Virus record (IMG/VR): IMGVR_UViG_3300032007_000071
Coordinates: 1 to 64,000 of that record
DNA: 64,000 nt
Origin: a virus
Taxonomy: Duplodnaviria > Caudoviricetes
Reading direction: 5' to 3' (one strand)
Shown here: positions 11,205 through 52,092 of the stretch, in pieces
Layout of the letters: each line of letters opens with the position of its first letter
How positions within the stretch are numbered: position 1 is the first letter of the stretch
Made by a program: the position numbers and the translations under genes
Notes under the pieces: model-generated
The model's input: the letters and a program-made list of their open reading frames with translations, nothing else
Database searches by the model: none
Told to the model about the DNA's origin: nothing

Positions 11205-11449
11205 CGGTCGCAAGCTCCCTTGTTGTGGGGTCGCAGAGCTCCCTTGTTGTTGGGCGCTTCGCTTGAAATTTTATTTAGAATTTATATTTATAATTTAATT
11301 TAAAATTTTCCTGCCCACCACTTCCTGCGGATAGGGTAATTCTACGCGAACACGTACCGCGCCAGCCAATTATAAATATAATTCTAAATAACAATTATAA
11401 ATATAATTTCAAGCGAAGCGCCCCCATAATCAGGGAGCGGAGCGACCCG
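11205..11449 (-). repeat. Modular AT-rich inverted-repeat element, copy A
   Basis: ggtcgcaagctccct...gggcgcttcgcttgaaatt[AT tract]cctgcccaccacttcctgcggatagg-core-cgcgccagccaatt[AT tract]aatttcaagcgaagcgccc...agggagcggagcgacc. Confidence 0.9.
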
Positions 11450-13745: not shown

Positions 13746-13913
13746 AAGCAATACATTTATCAAGTAGAAAAGCAATACATTTATCAAGTAGAAAAGCAAT
13801 ACATTTATACAGTAGACAAGCAATACATTTATCAAGTAGAAAAGCAAAACATTTATCAAGTAGAAAAGCAATACATTTATCAAGTAGAAAAGCAATACAT
13901 TTATCAAGTAAGA
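13746..13913 (+). repeat. 24-bp tandem array (about 7 units), putative centromere/parS
   Basis: aagcaatacatttatcaagtagaa repeated directly after parA. Confidence 0.85.
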
Positions 13914-13980
13914 AAGCAAGCAATTGCCCAATTAGTAAAGCAATTAATTGTATAAGCACAACATTAAACAAGCAGACAAT

Positions 13981-14424
13981 ATGGCAAAGAAAGACAAATT
14001 CGCACAGCTCCATGCACAAGGTGGGGGGATGCTTGGTTCGGTGGGATCGTTCCAGAATCTCGCGGCAACCGTGGCAGCTATCGACCAGCAGGAGCAGCAG
14101 GAGGAAAAAGAGAACGCACATACGGAGAAAGCCACTACTCCTTCCCGGGCTAAAGAGGAGAAGCAAACGGAAAGCGCTGTCGAGGAAGAACGCTTCATGC
14201 GACTTCCCAACCCGAAGATTCCATTGACGGAATACAACCTTGTAAGCAACTATTGCAACTCGCTTCCGAACATGACAAGGCAGGACTTCGTGGAGCTGGC
14301 CATTCTCGAAAAACTCTATAAGGACTGCGGACTGCCCAAAGCACAGTTTGATAAACGTTACAAGGAGATACGCAACCGTCCGCCACGCGGACACCGGAAA
14401 GGAACTAAGCAATCAAGCAAATAA
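13981..14424 (+). CDS. Small ParA partner (ParG/ParB type Ib-like centromere-binding adaptor)
   Basis: Follows parA, flanked by repeat arrays; flexible N-terminus plus a C-terminal strand-helix-helix-like segment. Confidence 0.6.
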   Translation: MAKKDKFAQLHAQGGGMLGSVGSFQNLAATVAAIDQQEQQEEKENAHTEKATTPSRAKEEKQTESAVEEERFMRLPNPKIPLTEYNLVSNYCNSLPNMTRQDFVELAILEKLYKDCGLPKAQFDKRYKEIRNRPPRGHRKGTKQSSK

Positions 14425-14426
14425 TG

Positions 14427-14625
14427 TATTGCTTGATAAATCTAACAAGGCAATGCTTGGATAAATCTAACAAGGAAATGCTTGGATAAGCTAACAAGGC
14501 ATTGCTTTAACAAGCTAACAAGACATTGCTTGAATAATCTAACAAGGTAATGCTTGAACAAGCTAACAATACATTGCTTGAACAATACATTGCTTTGTTA
14601 AGCTAACAAGGCATTGCTTGAATAA
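14427..14625 (-). repeat. Second 24-bp degenerate tandem array (about 8 units), putative centromere
   Basis: (c/a)attgcttg(g/a)ataa(a/g)ctaacaagg units; shares the AAGCAAT core with the first array, on the opposite strand. Confidence 0.8.
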
Positions 14626-15652: not shown

Positions 15653-16165
15653 GGTCGCTCCGCTTGAAATTATACTTAAAATTTGGCCTTAAAATTTTAC
15701 TTAAAATTTGGCTGGCGCGACGAGGGTCGGTCGCAAGCTCCCTTGGTGGGGCGCTCCGCTTGAAATTCTATTTATAATTTATATTTAAAATTCTATTTAT
15801 AATGGCTGGCGCGATGATTGTTGGTCGCAAGCTCCCTTGTTGATGGGCGCTCCGCTTGAAATTTGCTTTATAATTTATATTTATAATTTTATTTAGAATT
15901 GGCTGGCGCGATGATTGATCGCCTACGGATCCGGGGTTGCCTTCATCGTAGCACCTGTACAAGACGCATGAAAGGGTGGGCAGGAAAATTTTAAATCAAA
16001 TTCTAAATAAAAATTATAAATACAATTTCAAGCGAAGCGCCCCGAAGCAGCGCGAAGCGCAAAACAATCGGTGGCTGGAAAATTTTAAGTCAAATTTTAA
16101 GTAAGAATTTTAAGTAAAATTTCAAGCACGAAGTGCGCCCCTAACAAGGGAGCTTGCGACCCGAC
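15653..16165 (+). repeat. Modular AT-rich inverted-repeat element, copy B (3 left arms, core, 2 right arms)
   Basis: Three ..gcttgaaatt[AT]ggctggcgcga units, core ending gcatgaaagggtgggcagg, two inverted units. Confidence 0.9.
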
Positions 16166-16173
16166 CATCCGAC

Positions 16174-16790
16174 ACTTCCGTTTTTGTCGGGATCTCCCTG
16201 GGAAAAGAGAGACTTCCGTTTTTGTCGGGAAATCAAGACCTATATATTTGTCCCCCAAGGCTATAAATCTGTCTTCAACGGGAAGTTATAAGAATGTCCC
16301 CAGGTTCACATTCTCGTTATCAGTCTGATAATAGCATAGTTACGTATTTGTCGTGGAAGTTGTGTTTTTCCGACCGCTTTGATTATCAATGAGTTATAGT
16401 TTTCCGACAAAAACGGAACTAAAAAAATCTCTTTATTTATTTTATTTATTACTATATATATTATATATTTATAGGTACGCGTAACTTGCTGATAATCAAA
16501 GGTTAGCCGTGTAGTTTACCGACAAAACCGTAGCTTTTTACCGACAAAAGCGGAAGTATTTACCGACAAAAGCGGAGCTTTTCTCCGACAAAAGCGGAAG
16601 TATTTGCCGACAAAAACGGAGGTCTATTCCGACAAAAACGGAGGTGGGGACAGATTCAGAGTTTTCTGTCCTTGCAGTACGACGCATTTCTCCGACAAGA
16701 AAGTAACTTGATTAAAAAGTTTCAAGTGTTAATATTTTGCAAGTTGCTGAAAATAAACAAGAAAACACTTGTCAGTTTACCGACAAATTA
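16174..16790. promoter_or_regulatory. Plasmid-type replication origin: iterons plus AT-rich element
   Basis: ccgacaaaa(a/g)cggaag iterons: two inverted (16174, 16212), one at 16402, six at about 22-bp period (16518-16645), one inside the rep promoter (16779); AT-rich stretch 16420-16475. Confidence 0.85.
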
Positions 16791-16862: not shown

Positions 16863-17858
16863 ATGGCAAGAAAAACTCGCAAGGCCGAGCAGCTCAAACA
16901 AGAGATTGTCAACAGTGTGCCTGTAGAACAGCGTGAGATGATTACGCAGCCAATCACATTCACCTATCTCAATGGGGAAATGACGATGTTACAGACGCGC
17001 ATACAGACGATGATCATGGAGAAGCTGCAAGAGCGTATCGCCAATGCTCTTCAGAAGAGAGCGAAGGGTGGATTCACCGGGGAGCTGTTCACGGATGACG
17101 ACTTCGCGCCGCTACCAAACGGACACACGAAGTACCTCACGTTTGAGGTGAAATACTCCGAGTTGGGCGTGGAGCCTTCACACTATGAGGACATCGACAA
17201 AGCAGCACTCGCTATGCAGTCGATTATCCACTCAAAAGAGTTGACCGACGAACATGGAAAGAAATACGTCGAGTACACGGTGGTTTTTGACAAGGTAACG
17301 ATCCCCGTCAAGACAAAGGGTAGGGTAGAGCGACGTGACAGCATCAAGCTGCGGATGTTGCCGGAAACGGCACATGACCTGTTCAACATCATTCCCTACC
17401 ACCGCTATCTCAAAGATGCTGTATTCCTCTTTAGCAGTGGTTATTCGGGGCGTATATATCTTCTCATCAATGCCAACAAACGACTCGGCACTTGGAAAAT
17501 CTCCTATGAGAAACTTCGCAAGATTTTGCTCGCAAGTTATGACAATGACACAAAGCAGCTGTCAGTAGAGAAATACCCGGAGGTCTATGATTTCAAGCGT
17601 CGTGTGCTCGACGTGGCCAAAAAGGAGATTGATAAAGCCGCCGACCGCGTGGACTGCACCTTTGACTATGAGCTGGAATACCCTCATGGCAAGCACCGTG
17701 GAACACCTGAATACGTCGTGTTCCATATCCACATGACCGACTTGGGAAATCGCATCCTCCAGAAGAAGCTCGACTGCAAGCCGGCAGAGGCCATAGAGAT
17801 AAAGGAGGAAAACGAACCAAAGAATACGAACCCTATAAATGATATGAGCAAATGGTAA
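16863..17858 (+). CDS. Plasmid replication initiator (Rep_3/RepB-like winged-helix)
   Basis: QPITFTYL..MTMLQTRI; FSSGYSGRIYLLI; KYPEVYDFKRRVLDVAKKEI pattern of Rep_3 proteins; directly downstream of iterons. Confidence 0.85.
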   Translation: MARKTRKAEQLKQEIVNSVPVEQREMITQPITFTYLNGEMTMLQTRIQTMIMEKLQERIANALQKRAKGGFTGELFTDDDFAPLPNGHTKYLTFEVKYSELGVEPSHYEDIDKAALAMQSIIHSKELTDEHGKKYVEYTVVFDKVTIPVKTKGRVERRDSIKLRMLPETAHDLFNIIPYHRYLKDAVFLFSSGYSGRIYLLINANKRLGTWKISYEKLRKILLASYDNDTKQLSVEKYPEVYDFKRRVLDVAKKEIDKAADRVDCTFDYELEYPHGKHRGTPEYVVFHIHMTDLGNRILQKKLDCKPAEAIEIKEENEPKNTNPINDMSKW

Positions 17859-20789: not shown

Positions 20790-21225
20790 CGGTCGCAGTG
20801 CTCCCTTATTTGGGGGCGCACTTCGTGCTTGAAATTTTACTTAAAATTTGGCCTTAAAATTTTACTTAAAATTTGGCTGGCGCGATGATGGGCGGTCGCA
20901 GAGCTCCCTTATTTGGGGGCGCTCCGCTTGAAATTATATTTAAAATTTATATTTAAAATTTTATTTAGAATTGGCTGGCGCGGTGCTTGTTTCCGCATGG
21001 ACCCTATCCGCATGAAAGGGTGGCAGGAAAATTTTAAATTCAATTCTAAATAATAATTCTAAATATAATTTCAAGCGAAGCGACCAGAAGCAGCGCGAAG
21101 CGCTCCAAGCAATCGGTGGGCAGGAAAATTTTAAGTCAAATTTTAAGTAAGAATTTTAAGTAAAATTTTAAGCGGAGCGACCCCATAAAAAGCGAAGCGC
21201 CCATCAGCAAGGGAGCTTGCGACCG
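20790..21225 (+). repeat. Modular AT-rich inverted-repeat element, copy C (2 left + 2 right arms)
   Basis: Same arm and core motifs as copies A, B, D-G. Confidence 0.9.
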
Positions 21226-22290: not shown

Positions 22291-22715
22291 TGGGGCGCAC
22301 TTCGTGCTTGAAATTTTACTTAAAATTTGGACTTAAAATTTTACTTAAAATTTTACTGCCACCGATTGCTCTGGGCGCTTCGCGCTGCTTCCCTGGGTTC
22401 GGGGCGCTTCGCTTGAAATTGGATTTATAATTTTTATTTAGAATTTGATTTAAAATTTTCCTGCCCACCCTTTCCTACGGATAGGCGGATAGCCGAACTG
22501 GATGATCCTATGGGAACGCGTACCGCGCCATCCAAATTTTAAGTAAAATTTTAAGTAAGAATTTTAAGTAAAATTTTGAGCGGAGCGACCATACAGCAAG
22601 GGAGCTTGCGACCGACAATCATCGCTCCAGCCAATTCTAAATAAAATTATAAATAGAAATTCTAAATAAAATTTCAAGCGGAGCGCCCAAAAAAAAGAGG
22701 AAGCGGAGCGACCGG
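22291..22715 (-). repeat. Modular AT-rich inverted-repeat element, copy D (core reversed)
   Basis: cctgcccaccctttcctacggatagg-core-cgcgccatccaaatttt between inverted arms. Confidence 0.9.
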
Positions 22716-24150: not shown

Positions 24151-24289
24151 TTTATTATTTTCTCCCTTAATTCGCTATATATGCGCAAAAAAGATAAAAA
24201 AAAAATTTGAATCGAAATATTTACCCCGCGCCTCGCTAAGCGGTGTGGGGCGTCCGGCGGGTTCTGGCGTCCTCCGCAAATATGCAAAG

Positions 24290-24448
24290 GTAGTGCAGCG
24301 TTGGGGATAGGTAGTGCAGCGTTGGGGGATAGATAGTGCAGCGTTGGGGATAGGTAGTGCAGCGTTGGGGATAGGTAGTGCAGCGTTGGGGATAGGTAGT
24401 GCAGCGTTGGGGATAGATAGTGCAGCGTTGGGGATAGGTAGTGCAGCG
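24290..24448. repeat. 21-bp tandem array (7 full units + 1 partial)
   Basis: gtagtgcagcgttggggatag repeated almost perfectly with no spacers. Confidence 0.92.
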
Positions 24449-29408: not shown

Positions 29409-29613
29409 CGGTCGCGAAGCTCCCTATCTATTGGTCGCTTCGCTTGAAATTGGATTTAGAATTATTATTTAAAATTTTATTTAGAATTGGCTGCGCGGTG
29501 ATGGTTGGTCGCCGTGCTCTCATACCGCCCTATTCGCATGAAAGGGTATGCAGGAAAATTTTAAACCCAATTCTAAATATAAATTCTAAATAAAATTTCA
29601 AGCGGAGCGACCC
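29409..29613 (+). repeat. Modular AT-rich inverted-repeat element, copy E
   Basis: Starts 7 nt after a stop codon; arm-core-arm structure. Confidence 0.9.
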
Positions 29614-33480: not shown

Positions 33481-33492
33481 GACTTTATTTTT

Positions 33493-33702
33493 GGGGCGCT
33501 TCGCTTGAAATTGTATTTATAATTTTTATTTAGAATTTTATTTATAATTGGCTGGCGCGGTACGTGTACCGCAGGTTTATCCTATCCGCATGAAAGGGTG
33601 TGCAGGATAATTTTAAATCCAATTATAAATATAAATTCTAAATAAAATTTCAAGCGAAGCGACCAACAAAAAAAGGAGCGGAGCGACCCCCGATAAGCGA
33701 AA
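33493..33702 (+). repeat. Modular AT-rich inverted-repeat element, copy F
   Basis: Arm-core-arm structure just after the ardC stop. Confidence 0.9.
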
Positions 33703-43050: not shown

Positions 43051-43228
43051 ACTCCGGGAAGAAGATATACCATCTTTTCGGAGAATGTATACCATCTTCT
43101 GGGAGAAGGTATACCAACTTTTGGAAGGGGTTAACCTCGACCGATGCTCCAAGTTAACTTCGAGCAGTGGTCCAAGTATACCTCGACCGATGCCCCAGGT
43201 ATACCTCGACTATCGGTCGAGGTATACA
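43051..43228. repeat. Degenerate ~22-bp array ending in a perfect palindrome
   Basis: Repeated gtatacc/gttaacc cores; gtatacctcgac-tatcg-gtcgaggtatac at 43199-43227. Confidence 0.75.
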
Positions 43229-45984: not shown

Positions 45985-46320
45985 ATGAAGACAACGAAGA
46001 TTACAAAGGATCAAGCTATCACAATCATCAAAAACATCTTACGTGAGGGTTGTTCAATACCAATGGCTTCCCTCGGAAATGGTGGTGGCGGGTTGTGTTA
46101 CTTGGACCCTCCACCTTCCAACGACGAAACCCCAGAGTTCCTCTCAACTCTCAAAGACAAGTCCTTCCGTATCGTTCCAACCTCTGAAATCTCAGAGGAG
46201 TTCGGAGGTCTTCACTTTTCCGAAGACTACGACGTATGCGTCGAGTTTTCATCCATGGACGGCAGTAACCCCAGTCGCGAGCAATACCTTTTGTGGAACA
46301 TCGACTATTACAAAGATTAA
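45985..46320 (+). CDS. Hypothetical protein
   Basis: atacgattATG leader. Confidence 0.6.
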   Translation: MKTTKITKDQAITIIKNILREGCSIPMASLGNGGGGLCYLDPPPSNDETPEFLSTLKDKSFRIVPTSEISEEFGGLHFSEDYDVCVEFSSMDGSNPSREQYLLWNIDYYKD

Positions 46321-46359
46321 CATTCTAAGCCCTACCGCAACACGGTTGAGCGGGAAACT

Positions 46360-46449
46360 ATGACCGATGATGTAGAGGAGGAAATCGAGTTCAGCGACGA
46401 CTATGCCGTGGACGAAGTAGGCCGCCCATACCGTGAAGATGAAGAATAA
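46360..46449 (+). CDS. 29-aa highly acidic peptide
   Basis: MTDDVEEEIEFSDDYAVDEVGRPYREDEE, aaactATG leader. Confidence 0.4.
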   Translation: MTDDVEEEIEFSDDYAVDEVGRPYREDEE

Positions 46450-46503
46450 GACTGATGGATCGGTCTTATTCCGCCCAACAACAACCCATTAAACACAATC
46501 ACT

Positions 46504-46707
46504 ATGTCTTACCGCAAACTTCGCAAGCGCTATCAGCGCATGGACCACGGCAATACCGTGCAGTTCAAACTCTACGACAAAGACCATCGGGTAATGAAGA
46601 AAGCGACCAAGAAAGCCACCGCAAAGATCATGAAGCAGTGCGTGTGGCGGAACTGGAACGCCTTGCACTATCTCGCAGTGGCCGCTAAAGAATGTCAGCA
46701 TGAATAA
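46504..46707 (+). CDS. Small basic hypothetical protein
   Basis: 67 aa, aatcactATG leader. Confidence 0.55.
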   Translation: MSYRKLRKRYQRMDHGNTVQFKLYDKDHRVMKKATKKATAKIMKQCVWRNWNALHYLAVAAKECQHE

Positions 46708-46872
46708 CCAACCCGCTTATGGTGCTTGCTCCGTCGTCTACCGTTTGGCAGACGGCAGGGAGCAGCACCTGGCTGCCTATATCCCCAACGAGAAGGTACG
46801 CCAAACCTACATCGAACGAGCCAACAAGTTTGGACTCGAAATAACAATAACACCCATCAAAAACAAATAGCT

Positions 46873-47154
46873 ATGTATCAAGCATCCGTTTCAAACCAGC
46901 ACGGTAATTATGTTGTGACCGTCTGCATGGACGACATTCACGGCTTCCGTCCTTTTGCCAACTTCGGTTGGAATCAAGGGGCAGCTATGGAGACCCGCGA
47001 CCTGATTAATCGTGGTCGTATCGAATACGAGCGGGTATGCGCCAAGATCCGCCTATACGACCCAAAGGTGCTCTACGGTTATCCTCGTTATCGTGGCAAC
47101 CGCATCGAATTCACACGCCGTAGAAAATACGTCGGGGAGACCTTCGAAGAATAA
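46873..47154 (+). CDS. Hypothetical protein
   Basis: aatagctATG leader; in frame with ORF-track 46726. Confidence 0.6.
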   Translation: MYQASVSNQHGNYVVTVCMDDIHGFRPFANFGWNQGAAMETRDLINRGRIEYERVCAKIRLYDPKVLYGYPRYRGNRIEFTRRRKYVGETFEE

Positions 47155-47232
47155 GCAATCAATACGAGCTTTATCTGCCTCGTCCGAAAATCGGGCGAGG
47201 ATTTTTTTATCATCAACCTAAAATCAAAAGCT

Positions 47233-48132
47233 ATGAGAAATCTGTTTTCTTTCGCAGCCGTGGCACTCGTCTGTGCCGCTTGTACCAATCAGACCGAACT
47301 GGCAGAGACCAGTGAAGCATCAGTAGAGAAGCAGCGGGTGACGCTCTCTTTCTCGCCCTTCACGATGACCCCCATGGGAGCCAAGGCAAGAGTGACAACC
47401 CGTGCTACGGTGCCGGTCAGTGACGTGGTGAACCGCCTCGACGTGTGGCTGATGGAGGGAGACTCCACCACGGCCCTCACGAAACGTGAGGTGGTAGCGG
47501 AAAGTCACCAGACCGCCACAGACGATGGCTTCGGCTCGTTGTCGCTCACACTCGACAAGAGCAAGACCTACACCCTCTATGCCATCGGCCACAAGGAGAG
47601 TGCGCCCACGACACTCTCCACGGGGGTGGTATCGTTCCCGGACACGAAGAAGTCGCAGACGCTCTATTATTCTACTACCTTCACGCCCGCCACAACAACG
47701 ACCCTTGAATGTAAGATGCTTCGGGCGGTGGGTATGTTCCGGGTCGTCATCGAAGACGAGATACCCTCTGAGGTGAAGAAGATTTCTATCACCGCGGACG
47801 GAACGCCGACACAGTGGAGCTTCCCACAACATGCGGGCATCACGCCGACGGACACCTACTCCATATCGTGGACGAGTTTCAAGCACGAGGCGGACGGCAC
47901 CATGTCGTTTAGTATCTATATCTTAAGCAGTGACACGGAGAAACGCTATTCCATCACGGTCTCTGCCTATGGCGCCGACGGAGCCGTGTTGAAGACCCGC
48001 ACATTCACGGACGTGCCTATCCGCAACAACTACCGCACGATCTACACCGGCCGCTTCTTTAAGGACACGCCCTTTTCCTCTAAGTTTCGGGTGGAGGAAG
48101 ACTGGCTGGAATATGACGCAGTAGCGTATTAA
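47233..48132 (+). CDS. FimB/Mfa2-family (type V pilus) lipoprotein
   Basis: Lipobox CAAC, propeptide ending VTTRA, beta-sandwich pattern, C-terminal VPIRNNYRTIYTGRFF..F.V..DW strand. Confidence 0.72.
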   Translation: MRNLFSFAAVALVCAACTNQTELAETSEASVEKQRVTLSFSPFTMTPMGAKARVTTRATVPVSDVVNRLDVWLMEGDSTTALTKREVVAESHQTATDDGFGSLSLTLDKSKTYTLYAIGHKESAPTTLSTGVVSFPDTKKSQTLYYSTTFTPATTTTLECKMLRAVGMFRVVIEDEIPSEVKKISITADGTPTQWSFPQHAGITPTDTYSISWTSFKHEADGTMSFSIYILSSDTEKRYSITVSAYGADGAVLKTRTFTDVPIRNNYRTIYTGRFFKDTPFSSKFRVEEDWLEYDAVAY

Positions 48133-48138
48133 TCTCAT

Positions 48139-48332
48139 CGGTCGCTTCGCCCCCTTCCTTTTGGGCGCTACGCTTGAAATTTTACTTAAAATTTCTACTT
48201 AAAATTTTACTTAAAATTTGGCTGACGCGACGATTGTTGGTCGCTTCGCTTGAAATTTTACTTAAAATTCTTACTTAAAATTTTACTTAAAATTCCATGC
48301 GGAACCGGATGCAGTAGGGAGCGGAGCGACTG
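48139..48332 (-). repeat. Modular inverted-repeat element, copy G left arms
   Basis: Two gcttgaaattttacttaaaatt units then ccatgcggaaccggatg, upstream of GxxExxY. Confidence 0.88.
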
Positions 48333-48360
48333 CTTATCGTTTTCTTAAATTTAATTCGCC

Positions 48361-48783
48361 ATGAATGTAATAGAAGAACATAACGCTCCGTTGGAACCGA
48401 TGCGGGTCATCACGGGCGTTGCAATGAAAGTACATGCAAAATTCCGTTCCGGTCTGTTGGAATCCGCTTATGAGGCAGCAATGGAATACTTGCTGAAGAA
48501 AGGCGGCCATGTAGTAGAGCGGCAGAAAGAGCTGCCCATATTTTGGGACGATGTTCGCTTGAATCAAACTTACCGTATGGACTTGGTGATTGACGGAGTG
48601 ATTGTAGAGCTCAAATCCGTCAGCCATACGACCGATGCACACCTTCGCCAACTGTGGAACTACATGCGTCTTACTCATACGGAGTATGGTATGCTTATCA
48701 ATTTTGGTGCTGAGCATCTGTTCTCTGTGTGGTTTCGTCGTGATCCGATTACTAACCGCATCGAGCGGGTAAAGCTCCTTTAG
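48361..48783 (+). CDS. GxxExxY protein (PD-(D/E)XK nuclease superfamily)
   Basis: GLLESAY motif, RMDLVIDGVIVELKS catalytic core, QLWNYM..GMLINFG. Confidence 0.9.
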   Translation: MNVIEEHNAPLEPMRVITGVAMKVHAKFRSGLLESAYEAAMEYLLKKGGHVVERQKELPIFWDDVRLNQTYRMDLVIDGVIVELKSVSHTTDAHLRQLWNYMRLTHTEYGMLINFGAEHLFSVWFRRDPITNRIERVKLL

Positions 48784-48789
48784 CGGTTT

Positions 48790-48878
48790 GCGCCAGCCAA
48801 ATTTTAAGTAAAATTTTAAGTAAGAATTTTAAGTAAAATTTCAAGCGAAGCGCCCCGTAACAAGGGAGCTTGCGACCG
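48790..48878 (-). repeat. Modular inverted-repeat element, copy G right arm
   Basis: gcgccagccaaattttaagtaaaatt...tcaagcgaagcgcccc..aagggagcttgcgaccga; inverted relative to the left arms. Confidence 0.9.
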
Positions 48879-48911
48879 AAACCAAACGAATCGTTTGCAC
48901 TTGCAAACAAC

Positions 48912-48952
48912 AAAGGGAGCTATCGGCCCAAGCACCGATGGCTCCCTTTTCT
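48912..48952. terminator. Bidirectional terminator
   Basis: aaagggagctatcgg..ccgatggctccctttt between convergent genes. Confidence 0.75.
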
Positions 48953-48975
48953 TTTCCTTTGCTTGAAAATCCAAA

Positions 48976-49458
48976 CTAAGCAGTTATCAGCTGTAGTCCC
49001 ATGAGGTTATCCACCTTGAACGACACGCTTGTCTTGGCATCCTCCCGGTTCACCTCACACGCGTAGGTATCCTGAGTGGCTGTCACGAACGCACGCGCGC
49101 CCCCACGGAACGTGAGCAACAGATGGCACGGCGTGCGCTCCAGGGTCGTCAGATAGCCCCACGTCGTCTTGTCCCGGTCGTCGGCCTCACAAGACACCGT
49201 GACCGTGTGCTTGCGCCCGGCCACGCTGTCGCTCTCATCGTCCTTCACCTTTCCCGTGCCCCGCATGATCGGAATGAGTTTTCCGCCCGTCGTGGCAGGA
49301 AATGCCCCGATGACGATAGCGCTCGTGAGGGTAGGGGAGAAATCGGTACTCGGGATGGTCGGAGACACCTGCCAGGCATGAGTGCCCGGGGAGTAGTCAG
49401 TCACCGGGATGGCCGTGACCGACAACAGACCATTGAGGTCGAACTCCTTGCAGTCCAT
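48976..49458 (-). CDS. Hypothetical virion protein (tail-tube-like beta protein)
   Basis: Last gene of the head/tail operon; beta-rich. Confidence 0.6.
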   Translation of the reverse strand: MDCKEFDLNGLLSVTAIPVTDYSPGTHAWQVSPTIPSTDFSPTLTSAIVIGAFPATTGGKLIPIMRGTGKVKDDESDSVAGRKHTVTVSCEADDRDKTTWGYLTTLERTPCHLLLTFRGGARAFVTATQDTYACEVNREDAKTSVSFKVDNLMGLQLITA

Positions 49459-49461
49459 GGC

Positions 49462-50151
49462 TTAGTCCTCCTCTGACTGTTCTGACCGAATGACCGTCGC
49501 AGACGACTCTTCTTGGGTCTCGTCCATGCTCACGGGCAGGCTCCCTGCCTCTGGCTCTGTGGCACTCTCTGCCTTTGGCTCGTCGGCACTCTCTGTCTTA
49601 CGCTCGGCTTTCTGCTTGCGTGCGGTACGCTTGGTGGGCTTCGCCACTTCCGTGTAACGTTTCCAAAGGGCATCTACCTCTCCTTGTACAGCTGTGGCCT
49701 CACAGACGAAGTGTTCCCCATAGCGGAAGTTGAGTGGTCCCGTCACCGCAAGGTCGGGGAGCAGCAGCACGGTGTCGGTCTGTGCCTTGTCCACAAGCGT
49801 CAGTCGGTCGGGGAACGGATTGTTCTTGACCCACTGGGAGGCCTTGGGAGAGGCACTGTCGCCTAAGTCGGCAATGATCGTCAGCTTGTGCAGGCAGTTC
49901 ATGCGGCCTTTTCCGTCCATGCGTCCCCACGTCCGTCTCATCCATTCGTAGATGATGTCGGCAGCCTGGTCGGGAACGGCCGGCGCCGCTATGATCATGT
50001 CGATCTCGACATAGCGTGAGAGGATGGCTGGCAGCAGTTCAGTCAGCGACATATCTCCGTAGCCTTCAAAAAGCGTTTTCCCGTTGTCTCCTATCGCGTC
50101 GCGCAACATCGGGAATTGTTTCTGTGCGCAACATGGTTCTATTGTCATCAT
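49462..50151 (-). CDS. Hypothetical protein
   Basis: 229-aa ORF in the structural operon. Confidence 0.65.
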   Translation of the reverse strand: MMTIEPCCAQKQFPMLRDAIGDNGKTLFEGYGDMSLTELLPAILSRYVEIDMIIAAPAVPDQAADIIYEWMRRTWGRMDGKGRMNCLHKLTIIADLGDSASPKASQWVKNNPFPDRLTLVDKAQTDTVLLLPDLAVTGPLNFRYGEHFVCEATAVQGEVDALWKRYTEVAKPTKRTARKQKAERKTESADEPKAESATEPEAGSLPVSMDETQEESSATVIRSEQSEED

Positions 50152-50161
50152 AGTCGTTGTG

Positions 50162-51388
50162 TTATTTGATGTTAGTGGTTGGTATGTGGTAGGTCGCTGG
50201 GAACGCCGTGAAGAGTTTCTTGTGACGCAGTTCCCGGGCCTCCCGTGCTTGTCGTTCCTTCGCTTCCTCCACGTTCTTTGCGTCCCGTTCTTTTTGCGCC
50301 TCCCGCTCCTTCACCTGATTGTAGATAGGGGTGTCGATGACGGCATCGCCGAGTGCGGAGAGGTTGTCCTCGACATACTGGCACGCCATGGCCATCGCTT
50401 GCTGGGCGTCCGACATCGCGTCCCGTTGCAACAATCTCTCTTTGGAAGGCGTGAGCGTGGTGCGACGGCTGTCTACATAGAAAGCCAGGGCCGTGCGGAG
50501 CATGGAAAGCAACTCCTCGGCAGCGTTGGTAGGAATCGGATTTTTGGTCTCTCCGTCTGAGGTGGTCGTGGCATCGGACTCCAGTCCGTTTGAATAGTTG
50601 ACGATCGCCTTCAGCAACTTGGCACCGATCCGTGGCTTGATGTAGGTGTTCTGGCAAAAGCGGATGTCACGCACCAATGATACGTAGGTCATGCGGTCGC
50701 CGTTGATGTTCAGATACTCGTTGAGCACCCTTGCCGTCTGAAAGAGCAGGTCACGATGGAGATAGAACGCGTCGGCTTCCTTCCACAGTTCCGTGAAGAG
50801 GCGGTCGCCTTTGGCATCGGCTTCGAGGAAGAGGAGAAGCGTATCGACAGCCCGTCCCGCACTCATGTAGGCATCCTTTGCCACACGTTCCATGCGCTTG
50901 TCGTCGGCAGGATCGTAGCCGTCAGCACTCACCACGTTCATGCCGCCACCCTCGTTGAAGGAGACGGTGAGCAGTCCTGCCTTGTGCGCCAACATCTTGT
51001 AGAACTCAATCTGTTGGCAGATACGCAGCAGTCTGACGGTCTGCAGGTCTTCCGCCGTGACGTCGCTGTCCTCGGCCGATGGCTCTGACGCGTCGGCAGA
51101 GAGATTGCCGTTGGAGATGTCGTTGAGACGGTCGGTCACGTGCGCATAGGGCACGGCGGGGTTCTTTCGCGCCTTGCCAGTGGGGGAGATGGTCGTCGAG
51201 GTGATGTCGGTATAGCTTTCGCGCAGTCGCTCGCACTCCGTGCACAGATGTGCGTAGAGCGCAGCTCCCAACAGGGGTTCCAGGGCTACCCGCTCTTCCT
51301 CTTCGAGATAGCCATAGAGCTGTTGCGGTCGGCTCCAGCGTGCCGTGGGCATCAGACTGACGATTTCGTTTTCGGTCTTTATAAACAT
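50162..51388 (-). CDS. Probable head-completion/adaptor protein (DUF6712-like)
   Basis: Two internally repeated helical halves; position after capsid and tail tube genes. Confidence 0.55.
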   Translation of the reverse strand: MFIKTENEIVSLMPTARWSRPQQLYGYLEEEERVALEPLLGAALYAHLCTECERLRESYTDITSTTISPTGKARKNPAVPYAHVTDRLNDISNGNLSADASEPSAEDSDVTAEDLQTVRLLRICQQIEFYKMLAHKAGLLTVSFNEGGGMNVVSADGYDPADDKRMERVAKDAYMSAGRAVDTLLLFLEADAKGDRLFTELWKEADAFYLHRDLLFQTARVLNEYLNINGDRMTYVSLVRDIRFCQNTYIKPRIGAKLLKAIVNYSNGLESDATTTSDGETKNPIPTNAAEELLSMLRTALAFYVDSRRTTLTPSKERLLQRDAMSDAQQAMAMACQYVEDNLSALGDAVIDTPIYNQVKEREAQKERDAKNVEEAKERQAREARELRHKKLFTAFPATYHIPTTNIK

Positions 51389-51407
51389 ATCGTATCGTTT
51401 TATGGGT

Positions 51408-51452
51408 TAAAAAGAAAGAGGCCCAGGCCGCTGATGCAGTGCCTGGGCCTCG
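51408..51452 (-). terminator. Intrinsic terminator after the tail tube gene
   Basis: gaggcccaggc..gcctgggcctc followed on the minus strand by a T tract. Confidence 0.7.
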
Positions 51453-51486
51453 TGCCTATTGAGGATTGATACGCGGATGAGCTTGA

Positions 51487-52092
51487 TTATCCGTGAGACT
51501 CAGAAGAGGAAGGGGTAGTGGAAGCAGCCGTCGCATCGGCCTGGTCGATGTTGCCGTACCACTTGGTCTTGGAGTAGAGCTGATAGTCGCACTTCACGGT
51601 GAAGGTCTGACCGTGGTCGTCGGTGCGCTTGGTGCCGGTGTCTGACTTCACAGACCACTCTGCCTCGCCGTTCTCATTACCAACGACGATGAACTCCTTC
51701 AGGCCGTCGGCGTTTGTCTGGCCGGTGAAGAAGAAGTAGAGGAACTTGTCGCTGTTGTGCAGGACACGGCTGGTGAAAACCATATCGTCCTCGGAGAGCT
51801 CCACACGGCCCGTAGCGGTGCCGCTCCAGCCTTTGCCCGTGCCGTTGTCGTCGGAAGAGTACTGACCCGTCTGACTCTTATAGTCGATACGGTAGCCTTG
51901 AAGGGCGGGCGTAGCAGAAGCTGACTCTCCGGCCTTTGCCTTAGCCTTGATGTCGTACTGGTTCTTCTCGGCGTTGGCGGTGATGGACGCAATGTTCTCG
52001 AGAGGTACGGCAAACAGATAGTTGCCGAGACCTGCAGGATTCTCTGTGCAAGTTGCGCCGGAGATAACGGATTTTGGAATACAAGATGTCAT
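51487..52092 (-). CDS. Probable major tail tube protein
   Basis: Directly after the capsid gene; C-x-ENPAGL start and beta-rich pattern, high-expression codon bias. Confidence 0.6.
   Translation of the reverse strand: MTSCIPKSVISGATCTENPAGLGNYLFAVPLENIASITANAEKNQYDIKAKAKAGESASATPALQGYRIDYKSQTGQYSSDDNGTGKGWSGTATGRVELSEDDMVFTSRVLHNSDKFLYFFFTGQTNADGLKEFIVVGNENGEAEWSVKSDTGTKRTDDHGQTFTVKCDYQLYSKTKWYGNIDQADATAASTTPSSSESHG

Follow-up and report, generated by a model that had tools for sequence, protein, structure and literature searches.

The closest described counterparts of the locus examined here are the Ssn proteins, small GIY-YIG single-strand-specific nucleases whose genes are flanked by multi-copy hairpin repeats (NTS/SRM) that the enzymes cut as single-stranded DNA (PMC11893778). 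REPIN/RAYT pairs combine dispersed intergenic inverted repeat doublets with a repeat-flanked gene and many gene-less copies (PMC3116915, PMC3337134). The gene in question encodes RAYT, an HUH/Y1 transposase, and is usually single-copy. In MITE/IS pairs, long coding copies and short gene-less copies have common terminal inverted repeats. In eukaryotic foldback elements the arms consist of short repeats in tandem. Phages have free-standing homing endonuclease genes, which are small, selfish-looking nuclease genes placed in intergenic gaps, and in 23S rRNA intervening sequences an ORF occupies the loop position of a long stem. The segment of phage DNA described here, a cassette with a GxxExxY gene set between the arms of a foldback, recalls each of these in some respect.

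Like the Ssn/NTS system, the GxxExxY cassette has a small single-domain nuclease gene with a hairpin repeat on both sides and many gene-less copies, the presence of the gene in a genome goes with that of the repeat, and every homolog is paired with a repeat variant of its own (PMC11893778). It differs from Ssn in the PD-(D/E)XK fold of the nuclease, in arms that are arrays of two to three phased units, in the placement of the gene inside the foldback and in having a phage-borne example; the GIY-YIG domain cd10448 is absent from the GxxExxY protein, and its nuclease activity is a prediction. Whereas RAYT is a transposase, GxxExxY proteins have a hydrolytic nuclease fold and occur as several paralogs per genome, each with its own arms, and the cassette arms, unlike REPINs, are built from tandem units. 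No HUH/Y1 (IS200/IS605-like) transposase is present in the element, where the enclosed gene has the PD-(D/E)XK fold. Unlike a MITE/IS pair, the cassette shows no transposase family and no target-site duplication, and the gene-less cores are conserved rather than random deletion products. It departs from homing endonuclease genes in that the arms travel with the gene and, among the relatives found, no filled/empty polymorphism was seen at the site, and from the 23S rRNA intervening sequences in lying outside rRNA: the window and 20 related loci contain no rRNA match, so that the location expected of such a sequence is not the one found. The element is thus not an Ssn system, a REPIN/RAYT pair, a MITE/IS pair or an rRNA intervening sequence, as a defining feature of each is absent. 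By analogy, it may function most like Ssn/NTS and REPIN/RAYT.

The original prediction, which proposed a new mobile system, overstated its novelty, since the work on Ssn already describes a nuclease gene with multi-copy hairpin repeats on both sides (PMC11893778). We found no description in print of a nuclease-repeat partnership around GxxExxY proteins. The literature searched contains few papers on GxxExxY, PDDEXK_3 or PF13366 and none on function, no report of cleavage, binding or transposition by any GxxExxY protein, and nothing useful on 'intervening sequence protein'.

The window, a stretch of 64,000 nucleotides, covers the initial 64 kb of one virus record of 74,073 bp (G000; 51% G+C, 66% complete according to CheckV), whose gene products include a head maturation protease, a replication-initiator-like protein and an anti-restriction-like protein. 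Its syntenic relative G001 (nucleotide identity 66-88%, mostly about 70-80%) is a phage genome of 101.7 kb, complete and with direct repeats at its termini. A 78%-identical protein named from a Prevotella MAG and an adjacent Mfa2-like fimbrillin domain make a host among the Bacteroidota probable. Among GenBank phages there was no DNA match to positions 46000-51500 and no protein match at E 1e-8, and IMG/VR yielded no relatives of the upstream Mfa2-like gene.

The enclosed gene had been taken for a GxxExxY nuclease of the PD-(D/E)XK type, and this identity is borne out. Its 140-aa product matches PF13366 (E 1.3e-30, 106.5 bits, cut-off 22) and TIGR04256 GxxExxY (E 2.1e-32, 111.9 bits, cut-off 35); only PDDEXK_3 / GxxExxY models match, and there is no GIY-YIG match. 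Residues G31, E34, Y37, D74, E83 and K85 are present and nearly invariant in an alignment of 44 diverse homologs. The initial 13 residues are conserved among relatives, which argues that the start of the 140-aa frame is the real one. An AlphaFold2 model (pLDDT 96) finds its best structural matches in Cas4 SSO0001, lambda exonuclease and the Holliday-junction resolvase Hjc, all PD-(D/E)XK nucleases, and the protein is predicted to be such a nuclease with an intact active site. A sequence search of the PDB returned no relative, and a homodimer prediction scored 0.00, which is evidence neither for nor against. Values of dN/dS of 0.13 (against L009) and 0.05 (against L001) establish, by this measure, strong purifying selection on the predicted nuclease. 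It is the sole ORF of the gene-bearing element, and a transposase of known family is absent. The family is large, with 6,736 clusters (50% identity) matching GxxExxY / PDDEXK_3 at E 0.001 or better.

The arms that enclose the gene (Table 1) pair as 48239-48294 with 48800-48855 (56 nt, 98% complementary) and as 48149-48228 with 48790-48869 (80 nt, 88% complementary), and on folding the 740-nt segment closes through them. Each arm has a GC-rich outer part with a GCGAAGC-type mini-hairpin motif, a GCTTGAAATT anchor and three phased 12-13-nt AT-rich TTACTTAAAATT units, which in this copy end in TAAAATT. The unit, with up to one mismatch, occurs 25 times in the window against 0.13 occurrences expected by chance. 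On the left the arm module is present twice, with starts at 48172 and 48248, and on the right once. When 48172-48238 of the window is compared with L009:2290-2400, the duplicated left module proves to be present in the window and in metagenome contigs L127-L129, and single in ten 97%-identical relatives (L009-L018).

Table 1. Modules of the gene-bearing copy and gene-less loci of the same repeat family (positions in the window; a dot stands where no strand applies)
Feature	Positions	Strand	Description
Outer left module	48139..48171	.	GGTCGCTTCGC...GGGCGCTAC; GC-rich, pairs with outer right module
Extra left arm module 1	48172..48238	.	GCTTGAAATT anchor, three TTACTTAAAATT-type units, then GGCTGACGCG junction
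Left arm module 2	48239..48300	.	GGTCGCTTCGCTTGAAATT and three units; 98% complementary to right arm
Left interior and leader	48301..48360	+	Starts CCATGCGGAACCGGATG (resembles TTCCTGC-type core junction), contains GGGAGCGGAGCGAC
GxxExxY / PDDEXK_3 nuclease gene, 140 aa	48361..48783	+	HMM; active-site residues E34, D74, E83, K85 all present
Right interior	48784..48798	.	Ends in GCGCCAGCC junction, as at one end of gene-less cores
Right arm	48799..48855	.	Three inverted units, AATTTCAAGC and GCGAAGC mini-hairpin motif
Outer right module	48856..48878	.	AAGGGAGCTTGCGACC
Gene-less copy, A-type arms	11205..11449	.	ssDNA fold: ~90-bp stem, -57.8 kcal/mol, z -9.2
Compound gene-less locus	15653..16165	.	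Left modules T, A, A; core; right modules A, T
Compound gene-less locus	20790..21225	.	A-type hairpin nested within T-type arms
Compound gene-less locus	22291..22715	.	Flipped orientation; T and A arms interleaved, not nested
Gene-less copy, A-type arms	29409..29613	.	Sole gene-less site common with G001 (95.55 kb there; arm units differ)
Gene-less copy, A-type arms	33483..33702	.	No G001 counterpart

Six gene-less loci of the same build lie in the 74-kb record, at 11.2, 15.6, 20.8, 22.3, 29.4 and 33.5 kb. The original prediction had counted six empty copies with the same arms as the gene copy; the number of loci and the common build stand, but each locus has one to three left and one or two right arm modules, and there are two arm types, of which the gene's own recurs at three compound loci only. 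A full gene-less copy runs from one to three modules ending in GGCTGGCGCG through a ~60-nt core to one or two modules beginning with GGCAGGAA, and the whole element is found in both orientations. Type A arms (TTATTTAGAATT-like) are on every gene-less locus. Type T arms (TTACTTAAAATT) occur outside the gene copy only as a second arm set, nested outside the A-type hairpins at 15.6 and 20.8 kb and interleaved with them at 22.3 kb; at these three loci they are 86-96% identical to the arms of the gene copy. Exact-pattern scans of IMG/VR for the T-type arm and the core motif gave nothing, and a degenerate arm pattern gave 117 single matches, with real arms in 0 of 80 fetched.

That the gene sits where the gene-less copies have their core was a central part of the prediction, and here it was right. 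A TTCC(A)TGCGG-type junction on the left and a GCGCCAGCC junction on the right flank the gene, and the same two junctions bound the gene-less cores at 11309-11367 and 22459-22533. The right junction gcgccagcc begins 7 nt past the stop codon, as claimed, whereas the left junction resembles the core of the 22.4-kb copy only weakly, over about 8-17 nt.

Arms recur around related genes. Similarly built arms accompany close homologs (58-97% identity) in at least five contexts, and the two closest homologs in IMG/VR (76% and 69% identity) are both arm-flanked. One 76%-identical relative at the same site (L001) has different arm units; others at 76% (L019-L023) lie in a Rep3/DnaA_N to Stealth_CR2 phage neighbourhood, with the same arm build and other unit sequences. 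Homologs L002 (69%), L189 (58%, from a phage) and L182 (65%, in a bacterial sugar-acid operon) are also armed. Arms of the phage clade consist of an anchor and two or three phased units ending in AAAATT-like cores, and in this clade the gene was never found without them. No close homologs (E 1e-35 or better) were found in 401 sampled Bacteroidota genomes.

A more distant set comprised 80 fetched GxxExxY loci from many bacterial and archaeal phyla together with all paralogs of five genomes; gene borders were placed from the motif, and an inverted repeat was counted at a score of at least 30. At this threshold, such a repeat spans the gene at 66 of the 88 bacterial and archaeal loci, whereas mismatched pairs of upstream and downstream flanks reach it in 66 of 600 cases. 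The arms abut the start and stop codons and contain about three units, with a commonest period of 9-10 nt and CAC-type cores (e.g. CACAGAG, CACGGAT, CACGAAG). Their sequences differ between the GxxExxY paralogs of one genome, and a minority of the distant genes lie between two complete hairpins and not inside one.

The distant units also mark genomes that hold the gene. Four of the five bacterial genomes, with 3-9 GxxExxY genes, contain tandem CACRGAG units 8-37 times against 0 in the reversed control, and the fifth, with one GxxExxY gene, contains none. Short hairpins that lack the gene and have loops of 37-66 nt make up many of the matches. Among 201 Bacteroidota genomes, the gene is present in 34 of the 35 with at least five matches and in 81 of the 166 others (Fisher p = 1e-8). 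The single exception, G039, has 14 tandem matches and no TIGR04256 match. The prediction was thus supported in both comparisons it had proposed: homologs do not generally lack arms, close or distant, and genomes rich in the repeat do not generally lack the gene.

Copies of one cassette have reached different places. An identical 140-aa protein (P0052) is encoded at loci in at least three neighbourhoods, of which L175 adjoins a RibD-like gene and L176 comes after RibF and Rce1-like genes. The DNA that L175 and L176 have in common is a single block of 573 bp, 99% identical, whose limits are the outer ends of the two arms, and the two chromosomal contexts are otherwise unrelated. These comparisons support gene and arms as one unit and not a coincidence, and they show that this unit is found repeatedly in phages and bacteria and has been copied into new locations.

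The segment is best explained as the gene-bearing member of a foldback-repeat family whose gene-less hairpins, with the same arms, populate the same genomes. We lean slightly towards reading nuclease and repeat as partners in a mobile unit. That the nuclease acts on the arms is suggested by the tight physical link, the co-occurrence, the purifying selection and the Ssn precedent. It would recognise the phased units, probably as a multimer, and would nick or cut the foldback, or DNA close to it, whenever replication or recombination of the phage leaves this structure extruded or single-stranded. Homology between the repeated arms would then guide break repair or template switching, which would duplicate arms, whole hairpins or the gene-bearing cassette, and the duplicates would land in new intergenic sites or in the cores of other copies. 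In effect the arrangement would be like the Ssn/NTS or RAYT/REPIN partnerships with another nuclease fold. Since a hydrolytic nuclease of the PD-(D/E)XK fold is unable to join DNA by itself, these repair steps would have to come from host or phage functions. No target-site duplication was found at the element ends, in G001 against G000 or at the L175 and L176 boundaries. The differences in arm sequence between paralogs argue against a single recognition sequence, unless protein and arms co-evolve. That its own nuclease drives the copying of the repeats is a proposal we make tentatively and consider less likely than not. More speculative still is its extension to the whole family, namely that GxxExxY cassettes may be a widespread, undescribed class of mobile DNA in which a minimal structure-specific nuclease recognises the phased units of its own foldback arms and cuts there, repair copies hairpins with and without the gene to new sites, and elements shuttle between Bacteroidota chromosomes and phages, as the present phage clade would illustrate.

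The alternative that survives best, although we consider it unlikely, is that the hairpins came first, as functional structures of phage or host (intercistronic sites of RNA processing or stabilisation, or signals on single-stranded DNA for replication or recombination), that the GxxExxY gene is a selfish gene homing specifically into their cores, and that the gene-less copies are its targets. The gene-less copies far outnumber the gene-bearing ones. All seven loci lie in intergenic gaps between co-directional genes, and in those read closely the repeat starts within about 60 nt of the stop codon of the upstream gene. The G000 copies have retained a core motif (CCTATCCGCATGAAAGGGTG...GCAGGAA) that can still be recognised in part in G001, the nested copies suggest that cores are insertion points, and GC-GNA-GC mini-hairpin motifs, of a kind that suits single-stranded DNA, are found at the arm ends. 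Homing of the gene into pre-existing hairpins with the same arms also predicts the 573-bp identity block equally well. Only part of the original reading, of a full-length autonomous element with internally deleted derivatives, can be retained: arms and gene are one unit, but the label 'autonomous' is unsupported, and deletion and entry of the gene into hairpin cores fit the gene-less copies equally well.

The comparison with G001 bears on this alternative in both directions. The two phages have in common the gene-bearing site and one gene-less site (29.4 kb in G000, 95.5 kb in G001), the latter conserved despite changed arm units, as would be expected of a functional hairpin. Five of the six gene-less G000 loci, however, have no counterpart at the homologous places in G001 and so appear dispensable, and the G001 copy at 98.5 kb corresponds to a 31-nt spacer in G000. 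A hairpin scan of G001 found three such loci in 102 kb, one arm pair bracketing the gene and two gene-less hairpins. Read by synteny, the two genomes document the gain and loss of gene-less copies between related phages. The A arms of G000 are closest (83-92%) to the arms of the G001 gene copy, and the arms of the gene-less G001 copies are closest (84-87%) to those of the L019 gene copy; by arm identity, every arm type found gene-less has a gene-bearing counterpart in the phage group. At the orthologous gene site, all six units differ alike between G000 and G001 (TTACTTAAAATT against TTATTTATAATT), which indicates that the units evolve in concert. Module and unit numbers vary among near-identical relatives, a variation to which collapse of repeats in short-read assembly may contribute.

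Hairpins with a role in RNA would be expected to keep a pairing transcript. In the bacterial set, mismatches between arms show no sense-strand bias of the wobble or G-T type (80 against 72), the transversion type being dominant (172), and at 22.3 kb the interleaved arms cannot all pair simultaneously. On both counts the arms behave as inverted repeat copies, for example protein-binding arrays or recombination partners, and not as a transcript-selected stem. No Rfam family reached its gathering score in the window, and Rfam searches of 20 related loci gave only chance matches to miRNA-precursor hairpins. The constant presence of arms around the gene in the phage clade also speaks against the hairpins having come first.

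A less probable alternative is a domesticated or static locus, in which neither gene nor hairpins would now be mobile. The arms would then be operator-like binding sites or would control expression of a nuclease that serves phage or cell in defence, counter-defence, repair or the regulation of recombination or transformation, and the copies lacking the gene would be relics or sites of regulation. The strong purifying selection on the protein would suit such a role, as would the Ssn nucleases, which are flanked by multi-copy target repeats and modulate natural transformation but do not transpose. The gene is also fixed at its site, being present in all of the at least 13 near-identical relatives of the phage, so that no filled/empty polymorphism was caught there. 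Gene-free alleles were absent among the relatives found, including those sought through neighbouring proteins. In that search, which covered repeat-free alleles as well, the 160-aa neighbour protein was always accompanied by the nuclease gene, the 166-aa protein was not on record, and the contigs with the 20.3-kb gene stop at the repeat. A static locus, however, fits poorly with a 99%-identical cassette in unrelated neighbourhoods, with hairpin positions that differ between related phages, and with copies in many unrelated operons in which each paralog has its own arms.

Chance placement of an ordinary small gene between two arms of a common intergenic repeat, suggested by the frequency of the repeat (seven loci in 74 kb), can be dismissed, as G001 has just three repeat loci in 102 kb with one arm pair exactly around the gene, a 76% homolog in another phage neighbourhood is armed, the same bracket occurs at 66 of 88 distant loci, and the 573-bp block comprises gene and arms together.

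Three additions come from the present analysis: a clade carried by phages whose arms have AT-rich units of 12-13 nt, a cassette that is 99% identical between unrelated contexts, and the turnover of copies between two syntenic phages. The family-wide link to phased inverted arms and gene-less hairpins gives the protein a concrete candidate substrate, its own arms. Should the nuclease be specific for arm structures, common intergenic palindromes in Bacteroidota and other phyla would be explained, partnerships of the Ssn type between nuclease and repeat would extend to a second nuclease fold, and new tools that cut DNA by structure or sequence might become possible. The phage setting offers a small, tractable genome in which repeat turnover is visible between relatives.

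Other repeats and accessory genes were noted at or near these loci. The P0052 cassette lies amid a second hairpin family (GGTGTCGGATTRCAAATCCGACAC followed by tandem CCGACACAAC units), seen at L176:1340-1420 and 2020-2100 and in the upstream flanks of L177 and L178, which suggests that different foldback families cluster in these bacterial chromosomes. An N6/N4 DNA methyltransferase gene (L009:3104-3853; also L010, L015-L017 and L001) is variably present among near-identical phages; the window is without it, and where present it is directly downstream of the right arm of the cassette. Intrinsic terminators were rejected as an identity for the arms, which have no T-run and whose ~90-bp stems far exceed terminator stems. 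Iterons of a Rep_3 replicon were likewise rejected, the true 22-bp iterons at 16515-16645 being unrelated to the foldback arms. These iteron-like sequences are six 22-bp direct repeats (TTTACCGACAAAAGCGGAGGTA) directly upstream of the replication-initiator-like gene at 16863-17858. Two 24-bp tandem-repeat arrays of about seven copies each (13746-13919 and 14414-14622; 93% and 78% matches) stand on either side of a small gene and may serve in partition or as binding sites. At 24288-24448 lie 7.6 tandem copies of a 21-bp repeat (AGGTAGTGCAGCGTTGGGGAT) with 95% matches, and 22-23-bp tandem-repeat arrays at 43060-43227 include a near-perfect palindrome (43176-43227) right after a 1662-aa gene.
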